This document shows, in pieces, positions 36,798-50,545 of a stretch of DNA of 64,000 bases. Positions within the stretch are counted from its first letter, which is position 1; every line of letters begins with the position of its first letter. The position numbers and the translations under genes are program-made. The notes under the pieces were generated by a model, which had not been told where the DNA came from, searched no databases, and worked only from the letters and a program-made list of their open reading frames with translations. The DNA comes from Spirochaetia bacterium (GTDB lineage Bacteria > Spirochaetota > Spirochaetia > UBA9216). The DNA lies in contig OZ223264.1 in assembly GCA_965140585.1 (NCBI GenBank), positions 800,001-864,000 of the forward strand. Direction: 5' to 3'.

Positions 36798-38516
36798 TTA
36801 TAAAATTACTGAGGAATGGGCCGGAACCTCTAAATCACTGTAAAAAATGGTCTTATTTGAGAGGTTTGCAAATAGAATATGTTCTTTTCCGCCCTCAGTA
36901 TAGCTGATGGTATAGGTTCCGTTATCAGATTCGACCGATTCTATTTTCTTCTTTGACTTTAGAGACTCAAACATCTTCTTTCTTATATCGCTGTATTCTG
37001 CAACATTGTCGGATGTAAAAACAAGAGCTCCGGTAACAGCGTTGATTCTGAACAGTGTTTCTTTTTCGGCTCCGCTCAGTTTGGTATTTCTGTCTCTTAA
37101 TATGAAGACGTCCGGATCGTTTCTGAAAGCCCTCCCGTCAAGATGTCTCCGGCCTATTGCATTTGCCAGTGAGTTCAATGTTGAGGGTCTCTCCCGGTGA
37201 ATCTGGCTACCTCTGAACCCGTCGTCCCAGTCAAGGCTGACATCGCAGCCGATTCTGCAGTAGTCAACTAATCCAAAGGCCGAAGCCAGAGGTACTCCGC
37301 AGCCGAGAATCAGTTTGTCACCGGTAAGTTCCCGCAATAGTTTCATGCCGTCATGCATAACCGCTCCACGGGTTCGTCCCTGAGTTTCCGGTGCAAGGCA
37401 GGCGCCGTAGAGGAAGTCAAGCTTGACCATATCAAATCCCCATTCATTCAGAACTGTATTGAAGACTTCGGCAAGGTGGTCTCTGAACGCCTGATTGTAT
37501 ATATCAAGAGCATAAAATCCGCCCCAGTTTATTCCCGCCTGAACCGGCTTTCCCTTTTCATCCCGCAGCAGCCATTGCGGGTGTTTTTTTACAAGTTCTG
37601 AATTTTTCTGGGCTGAAAACGGGGCAAGCCATAAGCCGGCTTTGTAACCGCCTTCATGAATTCGGGCTACAACCGGAGCAAGCCCTTCAGGGAATTTTGA
37701 CCTGTCAATGCTCAGCCAGTCGCCTGTTGCGGTCTGGAAGCCGTCATCTATCTGAAATATATCGATAGGAAGACCGGTATCAATAAAAGCGTCGAGATTC
37801 TGATTTATTATATCGCTGCTGATATTTTCATAGTGGTCATACCATGAAGTCCATCCTGTTATCTGCGGTGTTTTTACCGCAGGCATCTCCATTGCCGAAA
37901 ACCACTGATCGAAGGCCTTATTTTCGTCATCGGTAACACAAAGCAGTTCAAGTGCTGTTACAGGTTTGTCGGTGGCAAGGTTGTTGCATTCCATGCTCAC
38001 ACGGATTTCTTTTGCCGCAGCTGTAAAACGTATTACAGTGAAAGCGTTCTGCTCATTCAGAGAACCCAGAAGCGTTATCTCATTTGAGCCATTTTTCCTA
38101 ATATATCCGTAAGAGAAGCCGTGAAACTCGCCCGGTCCGGAAGGCTGACGGATAAAATCGTAGTCTCCGTATTTACGAAGCTGAAAGTAGGGATTAACTA
38201 TTCTTCCTAAAAGAGGAATGCCCTTCTGTCTGTCCTGAAGGCCGTGTTCTGAACTGTCGGTCCAGCTCTGGTAGCCGTTGAGGAAAACCTTTTCATCCTG
38301 ATGAAATTCGTACCCGGCAACAAGCTCAAGCCTGTGAATTTTTATTTCAGCACGGGGAATGATTGAAACTTTTACATTTTCCCGTTTTCCGTCATTTGCA
38401 TGGCTCAGATTGAAACCTACAGCCTCTGAGTTGACCGGCGCCTGGAAAGGCATTACAACCGTATGTCTAATTCCGGCAGCCGAGTATTCAGCTTCAAACA
38501 TGGCTTTTTCAAACAT
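36798..38516 (-). CDS. Alpha-galactosidase, GH36 family
   Basis: GWTSWY, FQIDDGFQ, GLWLAPF, VKLDFLY nucleophile motif, RIGCDV, NDPD. Confidence 0.9.
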   Translation of the reverse strand: MFEKAMFEAEYSAAGIRHTVVMPFQAPVNSEAVGFNLSHANDGKRENVKVSIIPRAEIKIHRLELVAGYEFHQDEKVFLNGYQSWTDSSEHGLQDRQKGIPLLGRIVNPYFQLRKYGDYDFIRQPSGPGEFHGFSYGYIRKNGSNEITLLGSLNEQNAFTVIRFTAAAKEIRVSMECNNLATDKPVTALELLCVTDDENKAFDQWFSAMEMPAVKTPQITGWTSWYDHYENISSDIINQNLDAFIDTGLPIDIFQIDDGFQTATGDWLSIDRSKFPEGLAPVVARIHEGGYKAGLWLAPFSAQKNSELVKKHPQWLLRDEKGKPVQAGINWGGFYALDIYNQAFRDHLAEVFNTVLNEWGFDMVKLDFLYGACLAPETQGRTRGAVMHDGMKLLRELTGDKLILGCGVPLASAFGLVDYCRIGCDVSLDWDDGFRGSQIHRERPSTLNSLANAIGRRHLDGRAFRNDPDVFILRDRNTKLSGAEKETLFRINAVTGALVFTSDNVAEYSDIRKKMFESLKSKKKIESVESDNGTYTISYTEGGKEHILFANLSNKTIFYSDLEVPAHSSVIL

Positions 38517-38517
38517 T

Positions 38518-38946
38518 TTACACTTCCTTGTTCTGGTACTCTTTTATTGCGTTTCGGTATCTGTCCGGTATTACAATAGTTTCGGCCCTGTCGTAATCAT
38601 AGCCGGCGAATATTGTTGTACAATCGGATTTTATCTCGCCGGTCTGGTTTTCTTTGATTCTCTGCAGCATTGTGAGTGATTTATTGCCGATCTTGATCAC
38701 CGCAGATTCTACTATTATATCATCATGTAGGAAAACCGGTGCAAGAAAATCTGTTTTTACTGAAGCTACCACCAGGGATTTTCCTCCGGGCATATATGGT
38801 TCACCAAGCATTTCGGAAAGGTATTTTACCCTCCCGATATCATAATAATTCTGGTATACAGCGTTGTTTACATGGCCCTGGCCGTCAATATCTCCAAAGC
38901 GTATCTGAACAGGGACCTTGCATTTGAAATCGTGTTGTCTGTGCAT
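38518..38946 (-). CDS. Acyl-CoA thioesterase (4HBT/YbgC family)
   Basis: RFGDIDGQGHVNNAVY hot-dog motif. Confidence 0.9.
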   Translation of the reverse strand: MHRQHDFKCKVPVQIRFGDIDGQGHVNNAVYQNYYDIGRVKYLSEMLGEPYMPGGKSLVVASVKTDFLAPVFLHDDIIVESAVIKIGNKSLTMLQRIKENQTGEIKSDCTTIFAGYDYDRAETIVIPDRYRNAIKEYQNKEV

Positions 38947-39027: not shown

Positions 39028-39057
39028 TTGACAATGTAAACCCAAAGTAAATAATAT
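39028..39057 (+). promoter_or_regulatory. Sigma70-type promoter of the sugar/ThDP-complex operon
   Basis: TTGACA with AATAAT/TAATAT 16-18 nt downstream. The -35 sits inside TTTAC-N8-GTAAA, and GAAA-rich repeats follow. Confidence 0.6.
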
Positions 39058-39121: not shown

Positions 39122-40384
39122 ATGAAAACCAAAGCTGTACGAATATACGGAAAGAACGACCTCAGACTCGAGGAGTTTGAGCTTCCGGCAATGAAAGATG
39201 ATGAAATACTCGCAACAGTAATCTCAGACAGTATCTGTATGTCTTCATACAAGGCTGCTATCCAGGGGCCTGAACATAAAAGGGTTCCCAATGATGTTGC
39301 GCAGAATCCGACAATGATCGGCCATGAATTCTGCGGAGAGATTCTTGAAGTAGGTTCAAAATGGGCTGATAAGTTCAAACCTGGCCAGAAGTTTTCAATT
39401 CAGCCGGCACTTAATTATAAGGGAAGCCTTGATGCTCCGGGTTATTCATTTCATTACATAGGCGGTGATGCGACAAATATCTTGATTCCCAACGAGGTAA
39501 TGGAGATGGACTGTCTTCTTCCTTATGAGGGAGAGGCCTACTTCATGGGATCTCTGAGCGAACCTGTTTCCTGTATTGTCGGAACCTATCACGCCATGTA
39601 CCATATTCCCCAGGGAACTTATATTCATAATATGGGTATTAAGGAAGGCGGAAACCTTGCAATTATTGCCGGTGTCGGTCCAATGGGCCTCGGTGCCATA
39701 GATTACGCCATACATAATCCGGTCAAGCCCGGACTTCTGGTTGTGACCGATATTGACGACGCAAGGCTTAAAAGAGCCTCCGAGGTTTACAGCGTTGAAG
39801 AGGCTGCCAAAAACGGCGTAAAGCTCATCTATCTGAATACAAAGGATACATCAGATCCTGTTAAGCTTCTTATGGATCAGACCGGCGGAGCAGGCTACGA
39901 CGATGTACTGGTTATGGCTCCTGTTAAGCCGCTTATTGAACAGGGAGACTCAATACTTACAAAAGACGGATGTCTGAACTTCTTTGCAGGACCTTCAAAT
40001 ACAGAGTTTAAGGCTGAACTCAATTTTTACAACGTTCACTATGAGTTCCATCACCTTGTAGGAACAAGCGGCGGAAACACAGCTGATATGCGTGAATCAC
40101 TTGAAATGATGGGCCGCGGAGAATTGAACCCCGCATCGATGATAACCCATATCGGCGGACTTGATTCCGTTGTCGAGACTACACTTAATCTGCCCAAGAT
40201 TCCCGGCGGCAAAAAACTGATTTATGTTCAGAAGAGCATGCCGCTTACAGCAATTGCCGATTTTGAAGAACTCGGCAAGTCAGACCCTGTTTTTGCCGAA
40301 CTTGATAAGCTCGTAAAGAAACATAACGGCTTGTGGAACCTTGAAGCCGAAAAATATCTTCTTGCTCACAGTACCTCAATTTAG
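39122..40384 (+). CDS. L-sorbose-1-phosphate reductase-like zinc-binding dehydrogenase (MDR)
   Basis: ISDSICMSSYKAAIQG, GHEFCG, SLSEPVSC, AGVGPMG, DGCLNFFAGP, NFYNVHY, GTSGGN, IPGGKKLIY, all typical of SorE. Confidence 0.85.
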   Translation: MKTKAVRIYGKNDLRLEEFELPAMKDDEILATVISDSICMSSYKAAIQGPEHKRVPNDVAQNPTMIGHEFCGEILEVGSKWADKFKPGQKFSIQPALNYKGSLDAPGYSFHYIGGDATNILIPNEVMEMDCLLPYEGEAYFMGSLSEPVSCIVGTYHAMYHIPQGTYIHNMGIKEGGNLAIIAGVGPMGLGAIDYAIHNPVKPGLLVVTDIDDARLKRASEVYSVEEAAKNGVKLIYLNTKDTSDPVKLLMDQTGGAGYDDVLVMAPVKPLIEQGDSILTKDGCLNFFAGPSNTEFKAELNFYNVHYEFHHLVGTSGGNTADMRESLEMMGRGELNPASMITHIGGLDSVVETTLNLPKIPGGKKLIYVQKSMPLTAIADFEELGKSDPVFAELDKLVKKHNGLWNLEAEKYLLAHSTSI

Positions 40385-40393
40385 CGGTAAGGC

Positions 40394-41146
40394 ATGCATA
40401 GTTTAACCGAAAGAGAAAGGCGGATAGTTGAGATCCTGTCTGAAGAGGGCAGGGTCAGCGTCTCGGAGATAAGCGAGCGGCTGAATGTTTCAACCGTGAC
40501 TGTCAGAAGCGATTTTAACAGTCTGGTTGAAAAAGGCGTGCTCGTGAAAACCCGGGGCGGGGCTGTTCCGGCAATGCACCCGGAAATCCTTGAGCGTCAG
40601 AGGGATATGACTGATGTAAAAAGAAGGATTGCAAAGGAAGCTGCTTCAATGGTTGAAGACGGCGATTCCATTATGATATGTGCAGGTACGACAACTGCGT
40701 ATATCGGGAATTATCTCTTGGGCAAAAGAGACATCAGGATAGTTACAAACTCAACCCTGCTTCTTCCGTATGCAAGGATGAACCCTTCAATAAACCTTAC
40801 CCTTGTAGGCGGAGAATTCCGTCCGATGGCTGAAGCTGTTGTGGGTCCGGAGCCAATCAGACAGCTGGATGCCTACCATGTGAAAATTGCTTTTATCGGA
40901 ACGGAAGGATTCTCATATCAAAGCGGGATGACCACCCAGCTTGTTGAGAATTCGGAAATAATTAAAAAGATGGTCAGGCAGTCGGAAAAGACGGTTCTTC
41001 TTGCTGACTCGGGAAAATACAACAAGGTGGGCTTTGTGAAAATCCTGCCGCTTGAAAGTACAGACCTGATTATTTCGGATGAGGGATTGGACCAGACGGT
41101 CAGGGCTGAAATGGAAGAAAAAGGACTGAACCTGAAGATAGTTTAA
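40394..41146 (+). CDS. DeoR/GlpR family transcriptional regulator
   Basis: HTH VSTVTVRSDF..RGGA, AGTT, VTNS, LADSGK. Confidence 0.93.
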   Translation: MHSLTERERRIVEILSEEGRVSVSEISERLNVSTVTVRSDFNSLVEKGVLVKTRGGAVPAMHPEILERQRDMTDVKRRIAKEAASMVEDGDSIMICAGTTTAYIGNYLLGKRDIRIVTNSTLLLPYARMNPSINLTLVGGEFRPMAEAVVGPEPIRQLDAYHVKIAFIGTEGFSYQSGMTTQLVENSEIIKKMVRQSEKTVLLADSGKYNKVGFVKILPLESTDLIISDEGLDQTVRAEMEEKGLNLKIV

Positions 41147-41262
41147 ATCGGGAACACATTCGTGTATTTTCGATTTTCAGAAGTTTGAAAGCAAGGCTTT
41201 AAAACTTCATTTTTGAACCTGCCGTCACGGCAGAATGATTGATGTATTATTAGGAGAGAAAT

Positions 41263-42660
41263 ATGGCAACAGCGTTATTGATGCCAAAGCAGGGTAACTC
41301 GGTAGAATCCTGTCTCATTCTTGAATGGATGAAGAAGGAAGGCGACCGGGTTAATGTCGGTGATGTAGTCTGCGAGGCTGAAACCGACAAGGCAACCATA
41401 GAAGTTGAATCTACTGCTGAAGGTACCATTCTAAAGATTTTTTATGGACCGGATACCGAAGTGCCTGTACAGAAAATGATGGCGGTTATCGGTGACCCCG
41501 GTGAAGATATAAGCAGCTTTGAAGCTGAGTTTGCAGCCTCAGGGGACGGTGCATCCGCACCTGCGGCAGAACCCGCTGCGGAAGCTTCCCCCGCCGAATC
41601 AGCTGCTCCGGCAGCAGCACCTGCGGCAGCCCCGGCTGCAGCTGCGGTTAATACTTCCGGCGGAGACCGCTTTGTTTCTCCAAGGGCAAGAAACCTTGCT
41701 GCAGGAAAGGGCTTTGATGCCTCGGGCCTTGCAGGAAGCGGCCCCGGCGGACGTGTAATTGAGCGCGATGTTGTAAATGCACTTGCCGGAAAGGAACCCC
41801 TTACTCCTGCAGCTGTTGCAGCAGTCATAGAGCAGGGCCTTACTGCCCCGGCAGAGGGCACAGGAATCGGCGGAAGGGTCAGACTTCAGGACCTTTCATC
41901 CGCACCCGTTGCTGCTCCGGCAGCAGGCATTACCGCTTCAGCGTCGGCAGCCCTTCCGTTCCCGGGCGCTTTCAGGGATGAAAAGGTTAAGGGTGTAAGA
42001 AAGATTACCGCCGCTAGGATGATGGAATCGCTTTCAAAGACAGCCCAGCTCACACACAATTTTACAGTAGATGCTACCGAACTTCTTGCCTACCGTGCAA
42101 AGTTCAAGAACTCTCCTGAAGAACTCGGTCTTGGAAAGGTCAGCATAAACGATATCGTAATGTTTGCCGCTTCAAGGGTTCTGAAGCTTCATCCTGAGTT
42201 CAACTGCCTCTGGCTCGGCGACACAATGAGATATTTTGACAGTGTCCATCTCGGTTTCGCATGTGATACACCGAAAGGTCTGCTTGTTCCGGTAATAAAG
42301 AATGCCGACAGCCTCAGCCTGAAGGAACTTTCAGCAGAAGCGGCAAGACTTATTGCAGCCTGCCGTGAAGGAAAGGCCCAGCCTGATGAACTTACAGGAG
42401 CCACCTTCACACTAAGCAATGTAGGCGCTTTTGGAATTGACAGCTTTACTCCGATTATTAATCCGCCGGAGATAGGAATACTTGGTGTCTGCTCAACCCA
42501 GCTTAAGCCTGTGAGAACAGCGAACGGAGTTGAGTATCGAGATCACATCGGCTTCTCACTGACCTATGATCATCAGGCTGCAGACGGTGCACCGGCATCA
42601 AAGTTCTGTGCCGATATCAGGACTGCAGTTGAGAATATCGGGATCTACCTCGCACTGTAG
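41263..42660 (+). CDS. Dihydrolipoamide acyltransferase (E2)
   Basis: Lipoyl domain ETDKAT, Ala/Pro linker, PSBD SPRAR..GSGPGGRV, catalytic domain TFTLSN..PIINPP..YDHQAADGA. Confidence 0.93.
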   Translation: MATALLMPKQGNSVESCLILEWMKKEGDRVNVGDVVCEAETDKATIEVESTAEGTILKIFYGPDTEVPVQKMMAVIGDPGEDISSFEAEFAASGDGASAPAAEPAAEASPAESAAPAAAPAAAPAAAAVNTSGGDRFVSPRARNLAAGKGFDASGLAGSGPGGRVIERDVVNALAGKEPLTPAAVAAVIEQGLTAPAEGTGIGGRVRLQDLSSAPVAAPAAGITASASAALPFPGAFRDEKVKGVRKITAARMMESLSKTAQLTHNFTVDATELLAYRAKFKNSPEELGLGKVSINDIVMFAASRVLKLHPEFNCLWLGDTMRYFDSVHLGFACDTPKGLLVPVIKNADSLSLKELSAEAARLIAACREGKAQPDELTGATFTLSNVGAFGIDSFTPIINPPEIGILGVCSTQLKPVRTANGVEYRDHIGFSLTYDHQAADGAPASKFCADIRTAVENIGIYLAL

Positions 42661-42680
42661 AAATTACTGGAGTTTGAATT

Positions 42681-44006
42681 ATGTTTGATTTGATAGTAGC
42701 TGGAGCCGGTCCCGGAGGCTATGTTGCCGCTGAACGTGCCGGCCATATGGGAAAGAAGGTTCTGCTTGTTGAAAAGGAGAACCTCGGCGGTGTCTGCACA
42801 AACCACGGCTGTATTCCCACAAAGAGTCTTCTGAATGCCGCAAAGCATTTTACATACGGAAAAGAATCCGCAAAATTCGGCGTTCATTTTGACAATCCGG
42901 TCTTCAATTTTTCCGAGGCCATGGCCTGGAAGAATGAAACTATAGACAGTCTTAGAAAAGGTATTGCCTTTCTGATGAAGCAGGGCAAGGTTGAAGTCGT
43001 CTACGGTGAAGCAGTTTTTCCCGGAGGGAAAAAGGTGCAGGTCGGCGAAACTGTATACGAGGGTGAGAACCTGATTATTGCAACGGGATCTTCAGCCTTT
43101 GTTCCGCCTATTCCCGGATTTGACGGTCCAAATGTGGTAACAAACCGTGAAATACTGGCGCTGGAGGAACTGCCCAAAAAACTGGCAGTTATCGGCGGAG
43201 GTGTTATCGGCGTTGAGTTTGCTTCTTTCTTCAGTAATGTAGGCGTTGAGGTAAGCGTTATTGAGATGATGGATGAAATATGTCCGATGATGGACGGCGA
43301 AACCGCAAAACTCCTGCGCAAGCAAATGGGTGCGGTAAACTTCCTCCTCTCATCAAAGGTCACAGCAATTACAGCTGACGGTGTTGAATATGAAAAGGAC
43401 GGAAAGAAGGAAAGCGTAAAGGCAGACCTTGTCCTGATGTCAGTCGGAAGGCGGCCGAATGTCGGAGGCTTTGAAAATCTAGGTATTGACTACAGCCCGA
43501 AGGGTGTTGTAGTTGATGAGCGGATGCGAACCAATATTCCCGGTATCTACGCCGTTGGTGATGTAACAGGTGAGAGCCTGCTTGCCCACTCGGCATCAAG
43601 GATGGGTGAAGTTGCCGTGATGAATATGTTCGGAACCGGCGGAATAATGAGATACAACGCGGTCCCCTGGGCTGTTTACTCACTGCCTGAGGTTGCCGGA
43701 TGCGGCTACACAGAAAAGGATGCAAAGGCTGCCGGATACAATGTGAAATCTGCCGCTATGCAGATGCGCGCCAACGGCCGCTTTCTCGCCGAACACGGAA
43801 AGGAAGCCGGTATGTGCAAGGTTATTGCTGATGCCGATACCGACATGATTCTCGGCGTTCACATGATCGGCGCTGTATGTTCGGAGATGATAGGTACAGC
43901 CGCTGCAGCAATTGAAGCGGAACTTCGTACAAAGGATATGAGAGAAATTATCTTCCCGCACCCGAGCGTGTCGGAAATTATCAAAGATGTATGCTGGATG
44001 CTTTAA
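42681..44006 (+). CDS. lpdA: Dihydrolipoyl dehydrogenase (E3)
   Basis: GAGPGG, GGVCTNHGCIPTK disulfide, GGGVIG, HPSVSE. Confidence 0.95.
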   Translation: MFDLIVAGAGPGGYVAAERAGHMGKKVLLVEKENLGGVCTNHGCIPTKSLLNAAKHFTYGKESAKFGVHFDNPVFNFSEAMAWKNETIDSLRKGIAFLMKQGKVEVVYGEAVFPGGKKVQVGETVYEGENLIIATGSSAFVPPIPGFDGPNVVTNREILALEELPKKLAVIGGGVIGVEFASFFSNVGVEVSVIEMMDEICPMMDGETAKLLRKQMGAVNFLLSSKVTAITADGVEYEKDGKKESVKADLVLMSVGRRPNVGGFENLGIDYSPKGVVVDERMRTNIPGIYAVGDVTGESLLAHSASRMGEVAVMNMFGTGGIMRYNAVPWAVYSLPEVAGCGYTEKDAKAAGYNVKSAAMQMRANGRFLAEHGKEAGMCKVIADADTDMILGVHMIGAVCSEMIGTAAAAIEAELRTKDMREIIFPHPSVSEIIKDVCWML

Positions 44007-44035
44007 TCCGGTGCTAAGTTATAAGGAGTTATCAA

Positions 44036-46495
44036 ATGCCTAAAATACTTGAAATAAGGCCGGAAGAAGTTAGAAAGCCCGGCACCATCAAAATAAAGGA
44101 TATACCGGTAAACCAGTATAAGCCTGATATTAAGAAAGAACTTAAGCTGTACGGAAAAGACGGCCTTATCGGCATGTACTATGACATGCTTATTATCCGC
44201 GAGTTTGAAACCATGCTCGATCTCATCAAGAAGGAAGGTTCCTACAACGGACTTGAATACAACCACAAGGGGCCTGCACACCTTTCTGCCGGTCAGGAGT
44301 CCGCATCAGTCGGTCAGTGCGCCGTCCTTGATACAGACGACTTTATCTTCGGTTCCCACCGAAGCCACGGTGAAATACTTGCAAAGTGTTTTTCCGCTAT
44401 CAAGAAGCTTGATGAAGCAAGCCTGAAATCAACAATGGAAGGCTTCATGAACGGCGAAGCTCTGGGAATCGTTGATAAGCACCACAAGGGCGATAACGTA
44501 AAAGACCTTGCAGAGAACTTCGTTCTATATGGAGCACTCGCCGAGATTTTCGCCAGAGCCCCCGGTTTCAACAGAGGCCTCGGCGGTTCAATGCACACCT
44601 TCTTTGCCCCCTTCGGCAGCATGCCCAATAACGCAATTGTAGGCGGAAGTGCCGACATCAGCGTCGGTTCTGCCCTTTACAAGAGAATCAACCGGAAGCC
44701 CGGTATCGTAATTGCCAACATAGGCGACGGATCAATGGCTTGTGGTCCTGTGTGGGAAGGTCTTATGCTTGCAGCAATGGACCAGTACAACACCCTCTGG
44801 GACAAGGATCTCGGCGGAGCTCCTCCAATTATGGTTAATATCTTCAACAACTTCTACGCAATGGGCGGACAGACAAACGGTGAAACAATGGGTTACAAGG
44901 AGCCCGCCAGAATCGGCGCCGGTGTTAATCCCGACAATATGCATGCAGAGCGTGTAGACGGATTCAATCCGCTCGCAGTTGCAGATGCAATGACCAGGAA
45001 GAAAAAACTCCTGCTGGAAGGCAAGGGTCCTGTATTGATGGATACAATCACCTACAGACTCTCCGGCCACTCACCCTCAGATGCTTCATCATACAGAAGC
45101 AAGGAGGAGATGGATGCCTTCAGGGACGCTGATGTAATTCAGAACTTTGAAAAGTACCTCATTGAGAATGATGTTCTTGATCAGAAAACTTCCGAGAGCC
45201 TCAAAGAGAAGGTTACCGGAAAGATTACCAATACAATGCGTATTGCAATTGACGACAATATTTCAAAGCATGTAGACGGCAAGTTCATCGAATCTGTGAT
45301 GTTCTCAAATACAAAGATGGAAAAACTCGATGACCGCGAGCCCGAAGTTCTTATGCCGCTTGAGGAAAACCCGAGAGTAAAGGCAAACGCCAGAAAGAGA
45401 AGATACGCCTTCGATGAAGCAGGAAACAAGCTTCCGGCTTCAAAGCAGTTTGTATACCGTGATGCGCTTTTTGAAGCGGCCGTTCATGGTTTTTATACCG
45501 ATCCGACATTGGTCGCATATGGTGAAGAAAACCGTGACTGGGGCGGAGCTTTTGCCGTTTACCGCGGTCTTACTGAAGCTCTTCCGTACCACAGACTGTT
45601 CAACTCACCGATCTCAGAAGGTTCAATTGTAGGCTCGGCTGTAGGTTACGCTATGAGCGGCGGACGTGCAATGGTTGAACTCATGTACTGCGATTTCCTC
45701 GGAAGGGCAGGTGATGAAGTATTCAACCAGATGCCCAAGTGGCAGTCAATGTCCGGAGGCGAGCTCAGAATGCCGCTTGTCCTTCGTGTTTCTGTCGGAA
45801 ACAAATACGGCGCCCAGCACTCACAGGACTGGTCGGCTCTTGTTGCCCATATTCCCGGACTCAAGGCAATGTTCCCTGCAACTCCGTATGATGCAAAGGG
45901 GATGCTTAACCTGGCGCTCAGTGGAACAGACCCTGTTATCTTTTTTGAAAGCCAGAAACTTTACGGTATCGGCGAAGAGTTTGAGAAAGCCGGTGTTCCT
46001 GAAGGATACTATGAAATCGAAGAAGGCGAACCTGCAGTTAGAAGAACCGGAAGTGATGTAACAATTATCACCATCGGGGCTACTCTCTATGAAGCAGTCA
46101 AGGCTGCCGATGAGCTTCAGGAAAAATACGGAATGAGCGCCGAGGTTATCGACCTCAGATTCATCAATCCGCTCAACTATGACAAGATCATCGAGTCTGT
46201 TAAGAAGACCGGTAAGGTGGTTCTTTCATCAGACGCAAGCGAGAGGGGTTCATACCTGCACAACATAGCATCAAATATCAGCAGACTGGCATTCGATTAC
46301 CTCGATGCGCCACCGGTAGTAGTCGGTTCAAAGAACTGGATTACTCCGCCGGCAGAAATGGAAGACTACTTCTTCCCGACATCAAAGTGGATCATTGATG
46401 CCATTGATGAAAACATAATTCCGCTTTCCGGCCACAGCCCTTCATCTGTTCAGACCAACGGAGAGCTCCTCAGATCCCAGAGGGAAGGTGTATGA
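44036..46495 (+). CDS. ThDP-dependent dehydrogenase E1, fused alpha/beta subunits (acetoin/2-oxoacid dehydrogenase family)
   Basis: [21 protein letters not shown]...NNFY ThDP motif, TYRLSGHS. Beta part PISEG, GAQHSQ, DPVIFFE, EVIDLR. Confidence 0.93.
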
Positions 46496-47829
46496 TAAAT
46501 ACCGATCCCGGAAAAGTATTATCAGAGCAACTCAACAGCAGCAGCCGGACCGAGCGTCTGGCTGCTGCTTCTGCAATAGGGGATATGATTAAAAGCGGGA
46601 AGCTCTCAAACGGGCAGACCGATGAGGTCAACAATCATATCCATACAATTTATTCCTTCAGCCCTTATTCACCTTCAAAGGCCGCATTTATGGCCTGGGC
46701 ATCAGGACTGAAGGCTGCGGGCAGTGTTGACCATGACAGCATCGGGGCGGCCGCGGAGATGGTTGAAGCATGTAAGTCCATAGGCATAGGTTCGACAACC
46801 GGCTTTGAGCTGAGAGTCAACTTCAGCGGCACTTCACTTGAAACCAGAAAGATAAACAACCCCGACACCATAAACAGTGCATACATCTGTATTCACGGCG
46901 TTCCCCACGGTCGCTTTGCTGAGGTTGCGGAATTTATCAAGCCGATAAGAGATGAGCGGAATATCAGAAACCGGACGGAGGTTGAAAAGCTCAACAGCAT
47001 CCTTCCTCAGGGAGTTTTTGAAACCCTGGATTTTGAGAAGGATGTGCTTGCAATTTCAGAATCTGCAGACGGGGGAGGTGTTACCGAGCGTCATATCCTC
47101 TACGCCTTAAGCCATAAGATAATCGAGGCTGCCGGAAAGGGGGAGGGCACGGTTGATTTGGTAACTGATAAACTCGGCATACCTTTGACTGATAAAATCA
47201 AAGGCTTCCTGCTTGATACTGAAAATCCCCATTATGTTTACGATCTGCTCGGCATACTCAAAAGCAATCTTGTACCGTCTTTTTTCATACAGCCGAATGA
47301 GGTTGAATGTCCGGCTGCAGATAAGGTTGTGGCATTTGCCAACAGCATCAATGCTATTCCTTCGTATGCCTACCTCGGAGATGTTGCCGAAAGTCCTACC
47401 GGAGACAAGAAGGCTGAAAAATTCGAGGATGACTATCTTGATGAACTGTTTGAAATATTGAAAAAGACCGGCTTCAAGGCAGTAACATACATGCCGCCGA
47501 GAAACACTGTTAAGCAGCTTCTTCGGGTACAGGCTCTCTGCGATAAGCATGCGTTCATGCAGATCAGCGGTGTGGATATAAACTCCTCCAGACAGGTTTT
47601 CAGATGTCCGGAAATTCTTCAGCCCGAGTTTACACATCTTATCGATGCAACATGGACGCTTATTGCTCATGAGCATCTTGCCTCTGCCGACGAATCTTAT
47701 GCGCTTTTCAATCCTCAAGGAAAATTCGCGTCAAAGCCGCTTTCCGAAAGAATGAAGCTCTATGCTGAGGCCGGTAAAAAGATGGATCTTTTTAATCCTG
47801 AAAATATAATCGATTTAATAGGAGCATAA
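46492..47829 (+). CDS. PHP domain metallohydrolase
   Basis: [33 protein letters not shown] overlap with E1. Confidence 0.85.
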
Positions 47830-47830
47830 A

Positions 47831-48928
47831 ATGAGCATAAAAGCAGAAGCTATAGCACCGCTTATCCGCGGGCTTACATATAACGGTGAAACAGGGGCAA
47901 CTGTAACCTTCAGTCCTGAGAGGAAATCCGGACCGGGTGTGCTTTCTGTTAAGGATGCTGAAGCTTTTTTTGAGAATCCCGGTACTGCATACAGTGAGTA
48001 TCTGTTAGTAAACAAGAATATTCCTGAAGCCGTTTCGGTGGAAGGCTTGGGGTCTTTTGCTGTCAGTACAGCACTGCGCGACGGCTGGCCTTCAGTACTA
48101 GCCGGTAAGATTGCAGTAGTAACCGGCGGGGCCCAGGGCTTTGGAGCAGGCATTGTCGAGCAGCTTGTGAAAAAGGACATCTTTGTCTTTGTTGCCGACA
48201 TGAACCTTAAGGGTGCGCAGGAGTTTGCCGCACAGACTAATAAGTCTATCGGTAGAGAATGCTGCGACGCCGTCGAGGTCAATGTTGCTGATGAAGCTTC
48301 TGTTGAACAGATGATGAATACCATTGCCCTGAAGAAGGGCGGAATTGATATCTTTATAAATAACGCCGGTGTGCTTAAGGCCGGTAGCGTTAAAGAGATG
48401 AATCTCGGAGATTTTGAGTTTGTGACAAAGGTAAACTACACCGGCTACTTCATCTGCACCAAGTTCGCCTCACGCCTTATGGCTGAGCAGAACCGGGGTG
48501 CTGAATCAATCGGCAAAAACTATTACTCCGATGTTATCCAGATAAACTCAAAGTCAGGGCTTGAGGGATCAAACAAGAACGGTGCATATGCCGGCGGCAA
48601 GTTCGGCGGAATCGGCCTTACCCAGAGTTTCGCTCTTGAACTGATAAGCGACAATATCAAGGTTAACTCAATATGTCCGGGGAACTTCTTTGAAGGCCCT
48701 CTCTGGTCGGATCCGGAAAGGGGACTTTTTGTTCAATATTTAAACGCTGGAAAGGTTCCGGGTGCGAAGACAATTGCGGATGTGAAGGAGTTCTATGAGG
48801 CAAAGGTTCCAATGGGCCGCGGCTGTAATCCTGTCGATGTATCAAAGGCTGTTTTTTACCTTGTAGAGCAGAAATATGAAACAGGACAGGCCCTCCCGGT
48901 AACCGGCGGCCAGATAATGTTAAAATAA
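47831..48928 (+). CDS. Sorbitol-6-phosphate 2-dehydrogenase-like SDR with N-terminal extension
   Basis: TGGAQGFG, NNAG, INSKSG..NGAYAGGKFGGIGLTQSFALEL (SrlD-type signature), TGQALPVTGGQ. Confidence 0.85.
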   Translation: MSIKAEAIAPLIRGLTYNGETGATVTFSPERKSGPGVLSVKDAEAFFENPGTAYSEYLLVNKNIPEAVSVEGLGSFAVSTALRDGWPSVLAGKIAVVTGGAQGFGAGIVEQLVKKDIFVFVADMNLKGAQEFAAQTNKSIGRECCDAVEVNVADEASVEQMMNTIALKKGGIDIFINNAGVLKAGSVKEMNLGDFEFVTKVNYTGYFICTKFASRLMAEQNRGAESIGKNYYSDVIQINSKSGLEGSNKNGAYAGGKFGGIGLTQSFALELISDNIKVNSICPGNFFEGPLWSDPERGLFVQYLNAGKVPGAKTIADVKEFYEAKVPMGRGCNPVDVSKAVFYLVEQKYETGQALPVTGGQIMLK

Positions 48929-48943
48929 GGGAGCGGTTGATTT

Positions 48944-50359
48944 ATGAGGAAGTTTATAGCTGTAGACCTGGGAGCATCAAGCGGCAGGGTGATTGTCGGG
49001 GATCTCTACGGAATAGAGATAATGACAAGATTTCCAAGCCGGATTGTCAGGATTAAAGACACAATATACTGGGATTTTCTTGCCCTTTTCACAGATATTA
49101 AAAAGGGTCTGAAGGAAGCCTTTGATAAATACGGAAGCCAGATTAAAAGTATCGGGATAGATACCTGGGGCGTTGATTATGCTCTGCTTGATAAAAACGG
49201 AGATCTCATCTCCAACCCATACCACTACCGCGACAGCAGAACAGATGGTATGGAGGAGGAGTTTTTCAAGCTTGTTCCTAAAGAGGATATATACAAGGAA
49301 ACCGGTATTCAGTTCATGCAGCTCAATACCATCTTCCAGCTGCTTGCTCACAGCAGAAAATCTCCTGAAACGGTTGCCGCTGCAAGGCATTTTCTTACCG
49401 TACCGGACCTGCTGAACTACTGGCTGACAGGCGTAATCAGCAACGAGTTTTCCGAAGCCTCAACGACCCAGCTGCTCAATCCCGAGACTCGCAAGTGGTC
49501 TGAAAGACTGATAACCGCAGCCGGGTTTAAGCCTGAAATATTCAGTGATGTTGTCCTTCCGGGCGCCGTAATTGGAAAGCTCCTGCCGGAAGAGGCGGCC
49601 GAAATAGGGGCTCCTTCCGATGTTGTTGTAACGGCACCGGCCTGTCACGATACCGCATCAGCGGTTGCCGCAATGCCATATACCGGCAGCGGGAATGCAG
49701 CATACCTGAGTTCCGGTACCTGGTCTCTGCTCGGTATTGAACTTGAGAAACCCATTATCAATGATCTTAGCTTCAAGTATAATTTTACCAATGAAGGCGG
49801 CCGTGAAGGTCTTATTACATACCTTAAGAATATAATGGGGCTCTGGGTAATTCAGGAATGCAAGGCCGACTGGGACAAGAGCGGGAACGAACTAGGCTGG
49901 GGTGAGATTGTGAGTCTTGCAGAGAAAGCCCGGACAGCGGAATGGCCTGTGGATCTCGATGATCCGCTGTTTTTGAAATCAAGTCTTACAGACGGCAGCA
50001 TGCCCGGCCGCATCATTCAGTACTGTAAGGATGCCGGAACTGATGTGCCTGCAAACCCGGGTGAGGTTGCTGCATGTGTATTCAGAAATCTTGCTGATAA
50101 GTATGCAAAAACTGTTGGAAAGCTTGAAGAAATAACCGGTAAGCGGGTGGAGCAGCTTAATATTATCGGCGGCGGCTGTCAGAATGATCTTATAAATAAA
50201 TGGACTGCCGAAGCTCTTAAAAGACCTGTTCTGGCCGGACCGGTAGAGGCGACAGCCCTTGGAAATATTCTGATTCAGGCTGTATCTGCCGGTGAAGTTT
50301 CCTCCTATGAAGAAGGCAGAAAACTGATCGCTCAGAACTTCGAAATCAGAGAGTACTAA
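48944..50359 (+). CDS. Rhamnulokinase-family sugar kinase (FGGY)
   Basis: AVDLGASSGR, GIDTWGVDY, YRDSRT, TGIQFMQLNT, HDTASAV, SSGTWSL, NEGG, KNIMGLW, GPVEATALGN. Confidence 0.92.
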   Translation: MRKFIAVDLGASSGRVIVGDLYGIEIMTRFPSRIVRIKDTIYWDFLALFTDIKKGLKEAFDKYGSQIKSIGIDTWGVDYALLDKNGDLISNPYHYRDSRTDGMEEEFFKLVPKEDIYKETGIQFMQLNTIFQLLAHSRKSPETVAAARHFLTVPDLLNYWLTGVISNEFSEASTTQLLNPETRKWSERLITAAGFKPEIFSDVVLPGAVIGKLLPEEAAEIGAPSDVVVTAPACHDTASAVAAMPYTGSGNAAYLSSGTWSLLGIELEKPIINDLSFKYNFTNEGGREGLITYLKNIMGLWVIQECKADWDKSGNELGWGEIVSLAEKARTAEWPVDLDDPLFLKSSLTDGSMPGRIIQYCKDAGTDVPANPGEVAACVFRNLADKYAKTVGKLEEITGKRVEQLNIIGGGCQNDLINKWTAEALKRPVLAGPVEATALGNILIQAVSAGEVSSYEEGRKLIAQNFEIREY

Positions 50360-50447: not shown

Positions 50448-50545
50448 AAACACCGGGAAACCCGTACCGGGGCATCCCGGTGTTTCATCCATCAAGAAGC
50501 GGGTGGAGATTTCTTTTGGCCGGCAGCCGATGCCGGTCTTTTTTT
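50448..50545 (+). terminator. Two stem-loops after the sugar operon; the second has a T7 tail
   Basis: AAACACCGGGA/TCCCGGTGTTT (50448-50485) and GGCCGGCA-GCCGA-TGCCGGTC-TTTTTTT (50518-50545). Confidence 0.65.

Follow-up and report, generated by a model that had tools for sequence, protein, structure and literature searches.

The window, that is, the whole 64,000-nucleotide stretch of spirochaete DNA analysed, contains a run of eight co-directional genes on the + strand. An ORF check of the window places them at exactly 39122–50359, and the gene list and coordinates of the first-pass annotation are thus correct. The intergenic gaps, in gene order, are 9, 116, 20, 29, −4 (an overlap), 1 and 15 nt. 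The genes and flanking signals are as follows.

39028..39055, + strand: promoter-like site TTGACA-16-AATAAT (11/12 matches), 67 nt 5′ of the first gene
39122..40384, + strand: SorE/YggP-family Zn-dependent MDR, 420 aa (Pfam ADH_N, ADH_zinc_N)
40394..41146, + strand: DeoR-family regulator, 250 aa (HTH_DeoR and DeoRC)
41263..42660, + strand: E2 dihydrolipoyl acyltransferase, 465 aa (Biotin_lipoyl, E3_binding, 2-oxoacid_dh)
42681..44006, + strand: E3 dihydrolipoyl dehydrogenase, 441 aa (TIGR01350)
44036..46495, + strand: fused alpha-beta ThDP-dependent E1, 819 aa (E1_dh, Transket_pyr, Transketolase_C)
46492..47829, + strand: PHP-fold metal-dependent (phospho)esterase-like protein, 445 aa (structure model and Foldseek), overlapping the E1 gene by 4 nt
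47831..48928, + strand: SrlD-like SDR, 365 aa (adh_short; NF009050 below cut-off)
48944..50359, + strand: RhaB-type FGGY kinase, 471 aa (TIGR02627 below cut-off)
50518..50538, + strand: terminator-like hairpin (8 pairs, of which 6 are G-C) with a T-run after it, 159 nt past the last gene

The promoter and terminator reported earlier are both present. They carry little weight, because their excess over shuffled sequences is small: 26 promoter-like sites against 17.2 ± 4.3, and 17 terminator-like sites against 13.0 ± 4.0. Upstream of the operon, the window has a divergently oriented 4HBT thioesterase gene, which is kept only in the closest relative (L007).

Gene products of the operon

The earlier family labels stand for the MDR, the SDR, the kinase and the PHP-fold protein. 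Over 99–100% of its length the MDR shares 51–54% identity with E. coli YggP and annotated SorE proteins, and of 151 genomes of the class, 58 encode an orthologue (59–99% identity). The SDR comprises an SDR domain (residues 93–363, with adh_short at 93–285 and the YxxxK motif at 253) preceded by an N-terminal extension of about 90 aa that is specific to its family. Among solved structures SrlD (5o3z) is the closest, at 152 bits, with the second-best reaching 97, and the SDR is 35–37% identical to annotated SrlD proteins. Its match to the sorbitol-6-phosphate dehydrogenase model NF009050 reaches 223 bits (cut-off 307), compared with 131 for RhaW. Both enzymes thus have counterparts in the enterobacterial L-sorbose pathway (SorE plus SorD/SrlD).

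The kinase scores 461 bits against the rhamnulokinase model TIGR02627 (cut-off 528) and is 38.7% identical to E. coli RhaB. A genome search found it to be the sole RhaB-type kinase, the runner-up reaching 70 bits. Like the SDR and the kinase, E1 falls under all curated NCBIfam equivalog thresholds, and the DeoR protein reaches no such cut-off either; the latter presumably senses a pathway sugar phosphate and regulates the operon.

E1, E2 and E3 retain their cofactor and catalytic motifs. E2 has its lipoyl-lysine motif DKA at 42 and the catalytic DHQAADG at 436–442; E3 exceeds the TIGR01350 cut-off of 408.8 with 483.9 bits and has the redox-active CTNHGC at 39. The domains of E1 are E1_dh (168–407), Transket_pyr (473–643) and Transketolase_C (667–784); residues 1–167 match no family. 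Pyruvate dehydrogenase (PDH) E1 models are its best NCBIfam matches, none at cut-off, and its beta part is equidistant from solved PDH and BCKDH E1-beta structures (143–200 bits). Two further E1 sets are encoded in the genome.

The 445-aa protein has no Pfam match, Pfam PHP included. Its AF2 model (pLDDT 94.4) indicates a PHP phosphoesterase fold: the top Foldseek structures are 3o0f (E 9e-11), 3e0f, 2yb1 and 9etk, with E-values of about 1e-8 to 1e-10, probability 1.0 and TM 0.69–0.73 on the target. These represent BAD_1165 (3e0f/3o0f), the nucleoside bisphosphate phosphatase Cv1693 (2yb1) and RNase AM (9etk). With them it shares the N-terminal HxH and DH motifs; it differs in its low identity (13–16%), an inserted helical region (about 150 residues), its sugar-pathway context and a last metal motif DxN in place of the usual DxH of PHP phosphoesterases. 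Residues H49, H51, D80, H81, E106, H201, D362, N364, H393 and E394 are invariant in 37 sequences.

Conservation and sugar-gene context

This gene arrangement is far from chance and recurs in dozens of genomes. The order DeoR-E2-E3-E1-PHP-SDR-MDR(-kinase) is kept across Spirochaetota, Kiritimatiellota and others, with DeoR heading DeoR-E2-E3-E1 in 47–49 of 80 loci. The PHP gene lies immediately 3′ of E1 in 52 of the 70 genome loci with room for it; where at least 6 kb of downstream sequence is available (54 loci), the SDR is found in 44 and the MDR in 38. In 80 metagenome loci anchored on PHP, the SDR occurs in 58, E1 in 50 and the MDR in 37. When PHP is not beside E1, it is located elsewhere in four of five genomes checked, and in both of those looked at further it is adjoined by the SDR and MDR genes; no PHP gene was found in the fifth genome (G005, a Victivallales MAG of 3.0 Mb). 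The linkage of sugar genes to E1/E2/E3 that the first-pass annotation had pointed out is therefore strongly conserved in this neighbourhood survey.

The deoxysugar link is also borne out, as the module goes with the isomerase genes for L-fucose and L-rhamnose. Among 151 genomes of the class, 59 carry PHP; 58 of these have E1, 53 the MDR and 58 RhaA or FucI. RhaA or FucI is likewise present in 69 of the 77 E1 carriers, and E1 in only 8 of the 71 genomes that have neither isomerase; these counts take in related, non-independent genomes, so that their significance is overstated. Variable neighbours of the module are FucI, FucU, RhaA, sugar ABC transporters and lipoate-protein ligase. One locus (L042) reads FucI, ABC transporter, FucU, DeoR, E2, E3, E1, PHP, SDR, FGGY kinase, MDR, LplA, and another (L155) FucU, FucI, E2, E1, PHP, SDR, MDR. 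Transketolase genes lie within or adjoin the module in four loci (L018, between DeoR and E2; L021; L073; L103), which fits a tetrose-phosphate product.

The genome itself encodes FucI and RhaA (65% and 54% identical to their E. coli counterparts). Its rhamnose locus, apart from the operon, consists of a RhaS-type ABC transporter, RhaA, a RhaE-like protein and RhaM. There is no kinase in this locus, which therefore relies on that of the operon.

E1 has 344 relatives in genome contigs. The E1 family is not confined to the module: 19 of the 77 E1-carrying genomes lack PHP, and in some the E1 genes lie among housekeeping genes. Fused E1s with 52–54% identity occur in sugar clusters on alphaproteobacterial plasmids, namely of Rhizobium, Agrobacterium and Pleomorphomonas, next to an AcoC-like lipoyl/alpha-beta-hydrolase pair, a carbohydrate kinase, sugar ABC transporters and an RbsD/FucU protein.

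The first-pass annotation saw no intact class II aldolase among the eight genes, and none is encoded anywhere in the window; the eight PF00596 matches of the genome all lie outside it (C1:800001-864000). The earlier description of the route as aldolase-free holds in part, with a reservation for rhamnose. In none of 160 loci does a FucA- or RhaD-type aldolase adjoin the module, and the fucose-type operons (L042, L155) have no aldolase. All class II aldolase-family matches in the 160 loci are RhaE-like, with FucA, RhaD or AraD never the best match. These RhaE-like proteins are tied to RhaA, the two occurring together in 50 of 52 genomes, and are encoded inside some module operons; they were not found in five fucose-only module genomes (G011, G035, G038, G040, G082). 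Module-bearing genomes, including fucose-only ones, also contain two to three unlinked class II aldolase genes, some of which could conceivably function as FucA.

A candidate route for L-fucose and L-rhamnose

Judged from sequence, the pathway put forward in the first-pass annotation is the best explanation, with a probability of roughly 0.5. The operon would form the core of an L-rhamnose/L-fucose catabolic module in which a carbonyl shift and oxidative ThDP/lipoate cleavage replace the lactaldehyde-forming aldol cleavage. If correct, this would be an undescribed mode of fucose and rhamnose breakdown that gives acetyl-CoA instead of lactaldehyde; no publication on this gene module was found.

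RhaA or FucI, encoded elsewhere in the genome, would form a 6-deoxy-L-ketohexose, and the operon kinase, a candidate 6-deoxy-L-ketohexose 1-kinase, would convert this to the ketose-1-phosphate. For rhamnose only, the RhaA-linked RhaE-like protein would then invert C4 to give L-fuculose-1-phosphate. In either order, the SDR would oxidise the C5 hydroxyl to a methyl ketone and the MDR, as candidate 6-deoxyketose-1-phosphate C2 reductase, would reduce the C2 ketone. The carbonyl would thus end up at the far end of the molecule, in a 1-deoxy-D-ketohexose-6-phosphate, which is a methyl acyloin.

In the L-sorbose pathway, SorE and glucitol-6-phosphate dehydrogenase move the carbonyl of L-sorbose-1-phosphate to give fructose-6-phosphate; SrlD oxidises the carbon four bonds from the phosphorylated one. 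The logic is alike: the C2 ketone beside the phosphate is reduced, then the far penultimate carbon is oxidised. Unlike in the L-sorbose pathway, the proposed substrate is a kinase-made 6-deoxy sugar phosphate and not a PTS product, the SDR has its 90-aa extension, and the methyl ketone would be barred from glycolysis and passed to the ThDP/lipoate complex.

Methyl acyloins are cleaved by the E1 of acetoin dehydrogenase, and acetoin dehydrogenase systems occur in anaerobes. The fused E1 is a candidate for the same kind of cleavage of the 1-deoxyketohexose-6-phosphate; together with E2 and E3 it would yield acetyl-CoA and NADH, with release of a tetrose-4-phosphate. The resemblance to AcoA/AcoB/AcoC/AcoL lies in the combination of ThDP E1, lipoyl E2 and E3, in a reaction that splits a methyl alpha-hydroxyketone into acetyl-CoA and an aldehyde, and in the AcoC-type lipoyl and alpha/beta-hydrolase proteins that accompany the alphaproteobacterial E1 relatives. 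The differences are the fused E1 with its novel N-terminal 167 residues, the classical-type E2 and the presumed sugar-phosphate substrate.

Given the configurations of the sugars, and if facial selectivity is SorE-like, the tetrose would be D-threose-4-phosphate, which would need epimerisation to erythrose-4-phosphate before transketolase reactions. D-threose-4-phosphate is not known as a central metabolite, and this counts against the route. So does the PHP-fold protein, which has no required step in it; the earlier scheme had found no place for this protein, which is as conserved as E1. It may act on a phosphorylated intermediate; the best guess is an epimerase/isomerase or phosphatase working on the tetrose phosphate that E1 would release.

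The assignment of the RhaE-like protein as a probable 4-epimerase comes from gene context, because rhamnulose-1-phosphate and fuculose-1-phosphate differ only at C4. It has the fold, zinc ligands and phosphate site of AraD (L-ribulose-5-phosphate 4-epimerase). In contrast to AraD, it has the Glu of true aldolases, not Asp, at the position of FucA Glu73; it also has a C-terminal domain, about 160 aa long. As outlined in PMC5434028, sugar phosphates can be epimerised at C4 by class II aldolases, through retro-aldol/aldol chemistry that inverts this carbon.

Alternative explanations

FucI, RhaA, FucU/RhaM, the RhaB-type kinase and the RhaE-like protein beside RhaA are all shared with the FucIKA, RhaABD and RhaEW pathways. 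A conventional aldolase route has to be weighed, in which the RhaE-like protein (or, for fucose, an unlinked FucA-like one) splits the ketose-1-phosphate into DHAP and L-lactaldehyde, the SDR, acting like RhaW, oxidises lactaldehyde to lactate, lactate is converted to pyruvate, and E1/E2/E3 are a dedicated PDH that forms acetyl-CoA. The intact aldolase-type active site of the RhaE-like protein, the unlinked aldolase genes of fucose-only genomes and the PDH models that head the E1 matches argue for it. RhaE-like::SDR fusions recall RhaEW and count against our preferred route; they occur in 4 of 80 metagenome loci, and in one (L188) the SDR domain is 60% identical to the SDR described here. The RhaEW members tested, as described in PMC3870299, yield DHAP and lactate. 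The RhaE-like protein of this genome has no fused RhaW domain, however, and the SDR is closer to SrlD. A SorE-type reductase of hexose phosphates would be left without a substrate after net aldol cleavage, because it needs the uncleaved ketose-1-phosphate. Neither the PHP-fold protein nor the linked transketolases would be explained, there is no lactate dehydrogenase, the operon has no lactaldehyde reductase or dehydrogenase of known kinds, and the modules, fucose-type operons included, have no FucA or RhaD orthologue linked to them. With two other E1 sets in the genome and an E1 as close to BCKDH as to PDH, this route is unlikely.

Slightly less likely again is a variant of the carbonyl shift in which the SDR oxidises C4 and not C5 after C2 reduction, and E1 cuts C3–C4 to give L-lactyl-CoA and D-glyceraldehyde-3-phosphate. 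Acyloin-cleaving E1 chemistry should permit this cut, both products would feed directly into known metabolism, and C4, the sole difference between fucose and rhamnose, would be erased too. The divergent thioesterase gene would suit such a scheme, but its retention in a single relative does not. The SrlD analogy points to C5, and a tetrose phosphate would account better than glyceraldehyde-3-phosphate for the dedicated transketolase of four loci.

It is improbable that the substrates are non-deoxy ketoses or hexitols (L-sorbose-type, polyols), with E1 forming glycolyl-CoA and a tetrose or triose phosphate and fucose/rhamnose genes as mere frequent neighbours. Sorbose and glucitol are the normal substrates of SorE/SrlD relatives, and alphaproteobacterial E1 relatives also lie beside a mannitol-dehydrogenase-family gene, xylulokinase and polyol-type ABC transporters. 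Nevertheless, all but one of the PHP-carrying genomes have RhaA or FucI, the module shares operons with FucI, FucU and RhaA, and the only RhaB-type kinase is in this operon, with none in the rhamnose locus.

Finally, chance juxtaposition of sugar genes with an ordinary 2-oxoacid/acetoin dehydrogenase complex is very unlikely: every gene does come from a common family and PHP is absent from some E1 carriers, but the cross-phylum gene order, the translational coupling of E1 and PHP (by their 4-nt overlap) and the co-occurrence figures all speak against it.

Composition of the operon and its flanks

The source genome measures 4.85 Mb, and its closest named relatives are Spirochaetales/Spirochaetia MAGs. 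The eight co-directional open reading frames of the operon lie exactly where the first-pass annotation had placed them, with intergenic gaps of 9, 116, 20, 29, −4, 1 and 15 nt. One promoter and a terminator had also been proposed; a good promoter-like site and a terminator-like hairpin were indeed found, but both types of site are hardly commoner than in shuffled sequence.

Features of the operon and its surroundings in the window
36798-38516, minus strand: GH31/melibiase-like protein, 572 aa, divergent from the operon
38518-38946, minus strand: 4HBT-family thioesterase, 142 aa, divergent from the operon
38980-38953, minus strand: promoter-like site
39028-39055, plus strand: promoter-like site
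39122-50359: operon, in the order MDR, DeoR, E2, E3, fused E1, PHP, SDR, kinase
Within the operon: DeoR regulator, HTH_DeoR (57.6 bits) and DeoRC sensor domain (149.4 bits) in Pfam; none of the NCBIfam equivalog cut-offs reached
50518-50538: terminator-like hairpin
52756-54606, minus strand, downstream of the operon: N6-adenine methyltransferase, 616 aa, with Eco57I-like and TaqI_C specificity domains, a type IIG-like restriction-modification enzyme

The operon and the divergent pair share one intergenic region, in which the two promoter-like sites mirror each other. This pair is kept in the closest relative (locus L007) only; the position of an acyl-CoA thioesterase beside an acyl-CoA-forming complex may be more than coincidence.

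The Zn-dependent MDR (420 aa) had been described as SorE-like, which is right at the family level; it is 51.2–54.3% identical to E. coli YggP and to annotated sorE over 99–100% of its length. The matches include L-sorbose-1-phosphate reductase SorE genes of Serratia, Klebsiella and Citrobacter, whose names reflect annotation, not assay, and the unusual SorE length of about 410–420 aa is shared. For the SDR, sorbitol-6-phosphate dehydrogenase SrlD is both the best solved relative, by a wide margin (152 bits versus 97 for the next), and the best-scoring NCBIfam family, although the score of 223.3 bits against NF009050 stays below the equivalog cut-off of 307. Identity to annotated SrlD genes is 35–37%. 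The label SrlD-like can therefore be retained, and on these scores the protein is classed as a relative of SrlD, not an orthologue. Its catalytic YAGGK motif (YxxxK) lies at 253 and its glycine-rich NAD motif, GGAQGFG, at 99. The catalytic domain begins at residue 93, preceded by an extension of about 90 residues that is a weakly conserved feature of its own SDR family; it was rejected as an aldolase remnant after comparison with RhaE-like, a class II aldolase-family protein tied to RhaA, showed no similarity (best E 6.6). The FGGY kinase shares 38.7% identity with E. coli RhaB across 470 aa and scores 461.3 bits against the rhamnulokinase model TIGR02627, below the cut-off of 527.95. The genome encodes no other RhaB-type kinase, its second-best FGGY protein reaching 70 bits.

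The hallmarks of 2-oxoacid dehydrogenase complexes (a ThDP-dependent E1, a lipoyl E2 with catalytic His-Asp, and a flavoprotein E3 with redox disulfide) are all present. E2 contains lipoyl, E3-binding and catalytic domains, with the lipoyl lysine motif DKA at 42 and DHQAADG at 436-442, while E3 exceeds the TIGR01350 cut-off and carries its disulfide motif, CTNHGC, at 39. The fused E1 (819 aa) consists of E1_dh, Transket_pyr and Transketolase_C domains, with GDG at 230; its residues 1-167 have no family match. Against the PDH E1 models of NCBIfam all its scores are below cut-off (best 231.8 versus 321), and no BCKDH or OGDH E1 model occurs among the 10 NCBIfam families listed for it. Its affinities are given by scores against solved E1s and annotated plasmid genes only; the beta part is about equidistant from solved PDH and BCKDH E1-beta chains (143–200 bits). 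The genome holds two further, ordinary split E1 sets, each with its own E2 and one also with E3, so that this third complex is not by default a general pyruvate or branched-chain enzyme. Members of the fused-E1 family are annotated as ‘2-oxoisovalerate dehydrogenase E1’ or ‘alpha-ketoacid dehydrogenase subunit alpha/beta’, in our view uniformly a mis-annotation.

The 445-aa protein encoded after E1 matches no Pfam family at E ≤ 0.001 (PF02811 included) and reaches only 20.4 bits against NF041577; a sequence search against solved structures gave nothing useful (E 0.6). An AlphaFold model built from a 37-orthologue alignment (pLDDT 94.4) has as its best Foldseek matches the PHP-family metal phosphoesterases BAD_1165, Cv1693 and RNase AM (E 9e-11 to 1.5e-8), and its Atlas neighbours are also named PHP-domain proteins. 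The protein is thus predicted to be a PHP fold, with a seven-stranded barrel, an N-terminal HxH metal motif and a helical insertion of about 150 residues. In the 37-sequence alignment, the HxH (H49-x-H51) and DH motifs are invariant, as are R108, R156, R159, R200, K257, K306, R337 and R367. The last metal motif in PHP proteins is usually Asp-x-His (DxH); at this position the family has an invariant D362-x-N364. This motif and the many invariant Arg/Lys residues may reflect a modified metal centre and binding of a phosphorylated ligand.

Conservation of the module and its link to deoxysugars

The fused E1 has 344 relatives in a scan of one genome per species, of which the best 80 loci (66–97% identity) were examined. 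Most of these 80 belong to Spirochaetota, with others in Pontiellaceae/Tichowtungia (Kiritimatiellota), Victivallales and Moduliflexus, and the order DeoR–E2–E3–E1–PHP–SDR–MDR(–kinase) recurs among them. Of the 70 loci with at least 1.4 kb of sequence after E1, 52 have PHP as the gene immediately downstream; where at least 6 kb is available downstream (54 loci), SDR is found in 44 and MDR in 38. This recurrence across phyla bears out the expectation that the sugar genes and this E1 clade are linked in a conserved manner. Five genomes with an E1 locus lacking PHP were searched for it: four encode PHP elsewhere, and no copy was detected in the remaining one, a 3.0-Mb Victivallales MAG (G005). 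Two of the four were inspected further. In Oceanispirochaeta, PHP occurs with SDR–MDR–kinase about 8 kb from the E1 genes, and Treponema primitia ZAS-10 has an operon RhaE-like–PHP–SDR–MDR–isomerase–ABC transporter on a contig other than that of E1. Among 80 PHP-anchored metagenome loci, many on short contigs, SDR is present in 58, E1 in 50 and MDR in 37.

A profile of 151 genomes of the class detects PHP in 59, fused E1 in 77 and an MDR orthologue in 58; since these genomes are related, the counts describe a pattern and are not independent trials. E1 accompanies PHP in 58 of the 59 carriers, and MDR does so in 53. The 19 E1 carriers without PHP include a family (f24) with DeoR–E2–E3–E1 amid housekeeping genes and uninformative flanks, which argues that the E1 family is also used outside the exact module.

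Two variants were observed. Genomes G089, G034 and relatives (loci L109, L115), one family of the class, have DeoR–E2–(E3)–E1 (66–70% identity) flanked by rpsB, tsf, dxr, a sigma factor and pyrD, with no PHP, MDR orthologue, RhaA or RhaE-like; FucI is present in five of six genomes, and several have a second fused E1 paralogue (50–53% identity) adjoining E2. In genome G146, the sole MDR-family match (C1:902185-903072; 46% identity to the window MDR) carries three in-frame TAA stops, and PHP, two E1 copies and RhaA are kept. This represents either a decaying module or a variant that dispenses with MDR.

Beyond the module core, no neighbour is universally conserved. Recurrent but variable neighbours are L-fucose isomerase, FucU mutarotase, L-rhamnose isomerase and a 367-aa class II aldolase-family protein, as well as AraC and LacI regulators, ribose-type ABC transporters and lipoate-protein ligase. 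RhaA or FucI is present in 58 of the 59 PHP carriers and 69 of the 77 E1 carriers in the 151-genome sample; of the 71 genomes that have neither isomerase, E1 is present in only 8. Contig 2 of the source genome carries a rhamnose locus with genes for a RhaS-type binding protein (above cut-off), ABC components, RhaA, RhaE-like and RhaM, and none for a kinase; this locus must therefore rely on the kinase of the window operon. Contig 3 encodes a FucI 65% identical to the E. coli enzyme, with neither FucK nor FucA beside it. Based on isomerase co-occurrence, the kinase-less rhamnose locus and the FucI locus, the module thus belongs to 6-deoxyhexose catabolism, and a deoxysugar substrate, at first guessed from the kinase alone, now has the RhaA/FucI association behind it.

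Between MDR and a RhaS-type ABC transporter, at L104:4180-5607 (Treponema primitia ZAS-10) and L183:5514-6917, a 475-aa protein without a Pfam match replaces RhaA/FucI in position. It has a faint likeness to sulfoquinovose isomerase SftI (39.5 bits), and may be a new deoxyhexose isomerase.

None of the eight class II aldolase matches of the genome lies within the window. Across 160 loci, RhaE-like is the best match for every class II aldolase-family protein; in no case is the best match FucA, RhaD or AraD of E. coli, or another aldolase-family gene of the source genome. RhaE-like follows RhaA in every place inspected, and the two occur together in 50 of 52 genomes. Five module genomes with FucI and no RhaA yielded no RhaE-like (G011, G035, G038, G040 and G082; four are 96–100% complete, G038 69%). 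Fucose-type operons look self-contained without any aldolase, as in two loci:

Fucose-type operons without an aldolase
L042: FucI, LacI, ABC transporter, FucU; DeoR, E2, E3, E1, PHP, SDR, FGGY kinase, MDR; LplA
L155: FucU, FucI, E2, E1, PHP, SDR, MDR

The claim that no aldolase takes part therefore stands for the window operon and the fucose branch, but not for the system as a whole, of which RhaE-like is a regular, rhamnose-specific member. One metagenomic lineage (L146, L152) has an operon with the gene order RhaA, aldolase-like protein (264–270 aa), kinase, E2, E1, PHP, SDR, MDR. No unlinked class II aldolase gene of the source genome exceeds the FucA or RhaD cut-off; the fucose-only genomes have two to three such genes each, which may provide classical FucA activity.

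RhaE-like is the counterpart of the N-terminal half of ‘bifunctional aldolase/SDR’ models (131 bits). In the source genome RhaE-like and the SDR are not fused in the manner of RhaEW: RhaE-like (372 aa) is encoded on contig 2, the SDR on another contig, in the window. In-frame fusions of the two do occur inside module operons, in 4 of 80 metagenome loci:

RhaE-like::SDR fusions
L143:7446-9395
L160:192-2180
L188:4250-6244
L197:4146-6134

The SDR part of the L188 protein, the sole fusion compared, is 60% identical to the window SDR. In the same locus, a very divergent MDR-like gene (565 aa) separates the fusion from PHP, and no fused E1 is in view.

A possible route and its alternatives

All chemical steps of the scheme described here are ones that we infer. 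L-Rhamnulose-1-phosphate and L-fuculose-1-phosphate differ solely at C4, and a SorE-type reductase requires an intact ketose-1-phosphate. The zinc ligands of FucA (H92, H94, H155), the residues of the phosphate site (G28, N29, G44) and a Glu corresponding to Glu73 are all retained in RhaE-like, whose sequence therefore cannot separate an aldolase from an epimerase. Cleavage would, however, leave MDR, SDR and E1 of the same operons without a substrate, and is at odds with the rhamnose-only genomes (G015, G024, G030, G153), which keep the whole module. RhaE-like would thus rather act as a C4 epimerase, inverting C4 of rhamnulose-1-phosphate by a retro-aldol/aldol mechanism as in AraD, and feeding rhamnose into a module specific for fuculose-1-phosphate. 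For class II aldolases, 4-epimerisation of sugar phosphates has been demonstrated (PMC5434028). An Asp at the FucA Glu73 position is reported for RhaE of RhaEW (PMC3870299); an AraD-type assignment with this Asp was rejected, as the spirochaete proteins have Glu. An analogy of RhaE-like and PHP to an MtnB-like dehydratase and phosphatase was discarded because RhaE-like is rhamnose-specific and PHP universal.

The RhaE-like::SDR fusion suggests that the SDR acts next. Together, SDR and MDR would shift the carbonyl from C2 to C5, as SorE and glucitol-6-phosphate dehydrogenase do with L-sorbose-1-phosphate; by our derivation, the C5 carbinol of the L-sugar, viewed from the phosphate end, has the same configuration as C2 of D-glucitol-6-phosphate. 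The product would be a 1-deoxy-D-ketohexose-6-phosphate, a methyl acyloin, and methyl acyloins are the substrate type of acetoin dehydrogenase E1. Cleavage by E1 would yield acetyl-lipoamide and then acetyl-CoA and NADH, with release of a tetrose-4-phosphate. Given SorE-like facial selectivity, this tetrose would be D-threose-4-phosphate, and C2 epimerisation would be needed to reach erythrose-4-phosphate. Handling of the released tetrose phosphate would fall to the PHP-fold protein, which is translationally coupled to E1 and conserved as E1 is, and hence a natural candidate; an epimerase/isomerase and a phosphatase carry roughly equal weight. Four separate loci have transketolase genes within the module or next to it (L018, between DeoR and E2; L021; L073, Pontiellaceae; L103), which fits a product entering non-oxidative pentose-phosphate reactions.

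The full reading, to which we assign a probability of roughly 0.4, is that in anaerobic Spirochaetota and Kiritimatiellota a PDH-type lipoate/ThDP complex cleaves 1-deoxyketohexose-6-phosphate after a sorbose-like shift to acetyl-CoA and tetrose phosphate, in a lactaldehyde- and propanediol-free route for L-fucose and L-rhamnose. In this reading RhaE-like would be an L-rhamnulose-1-phosphate 4-epimerase, PHP would perform new tetrose-phosphate chemistry, and the fused E1s would form a new class of sugar-phosphate dehydrogenase complexes.

The emergence of FucI and RhaA as neighbours meant that a module processing lactaldehyde, formed by an aldolase and converted via lactate and pyruvate to acetyl-CoA, had to be taken seriously. 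There is a precedent in RhaEW, whose published assay (PMC3870299) gave DHAP and lactate as products and neither of them without NAD+, even DHAP; its authors ascribe this to dependence of the aldolase on the dehydrogenase domain. This route would account for neither the SorE-type MDR nor the PHP protein nor the transketolase link, and would require an unlinked FucA. With the MDR a close SorE/YggP relative and fucose operons lacking an aldolase, it is considered unlikely. The fusions described above may also warrant a second look at the order in which RhaEW enzymes carry out their aldol and redox steps. Slightly less credible still is oxidation at C4, giving lactyl-CoA and glyceraldehyde-3-phosphate, which is chemically attractive but runs counter to the SrlD analogy. 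Non-deoxy substrates, which would yield glycolyl-CoA, are improbable in the face of the isomerase and kinase associations. Chance juxtaposition of two units is very improbable, as the conservation of the arrangement speaks against it.

Precedents and related gene clusters

Every part of the module falls within a known superfamily, and the sorbose carbonyl shift and acetoin cleavage are precedents for the two halves of its logic. What would be new, if the reading is correct, is the combination of the two, a lipoate-dependent complex that takes a sugar phosphate, deoxyhexose breakdown without lactaldehyde, a putative 4-epimerase in the form of stand-alone RhaE-like, and the PHP-fold member. To our knowledge, textbook catabolism of fucose and rhamnose always proceeds via lactaldehyde to propanediol, often within microcompartments. 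Both are major sugars in algal fucoidans, plant pectins and mucins, and such spirochaetes and Kiritimatiellota inhabit marine sediments, termite guts and anaerobic digesters. The claim is specific and widespread in nature. Formation of acetyl-CoA, NADH and a pentose-phosphate-pathway intermediate would alter predicted fermentation products, hydrogen/acetate yields and cross-feeding; the substrate range of 2-oxoacid/acetoin dehydrogenase complexes would widen to sugar phosphates; and the large fused-E1 family, the Pfam-less PHP-fold family and stand-alone RhaE-like proteins would acquire their first functions. A full-text literature search, outside subscription journals and supplements, returned no description of the module.

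Fused E1s of 52–54% identity occur on alphaproteobacterial plasmids, namely Rhizobium pRL8 (L117; NC_008383.1, 85082-87547 and flanks), Agrobacterium pAt15955 (L118) and a Pleomorphomonas plasmid (L119; pSM30-1). Each is followed by a free lipoyl protein (78 aa), an alpha/beta-hydrolase and a SorC-type sugar-binding regulator, the first two being the AcoC-type E2 arrangement of the acetoin dehydrogenase system. Around them are carbohydrate kinases or xylulokinase, sugar ABC transporters, an RbsD/FucU protein, a mannitol-dehydrogenase-family gene, a sugar-phosphate isomerase/epimerase and lipA. Judged by gene content, these clusters provide independent evidence, from another phylum, that fused E1s act on substrates derived from sugars and have an affinity with acyloin-cleaving systems. 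The pRL8 E1 cluster is not mentioned in the accessible portion of a Rhizobium rhizosphere transcriptome paper (PMC3333776). One of the plasmid copies is annotated acoB, and the E1 gene of pRL8 adjoins a divergently oriented gene for a ‘sugar phosphate isomerase/epimerase’ barrel protein.
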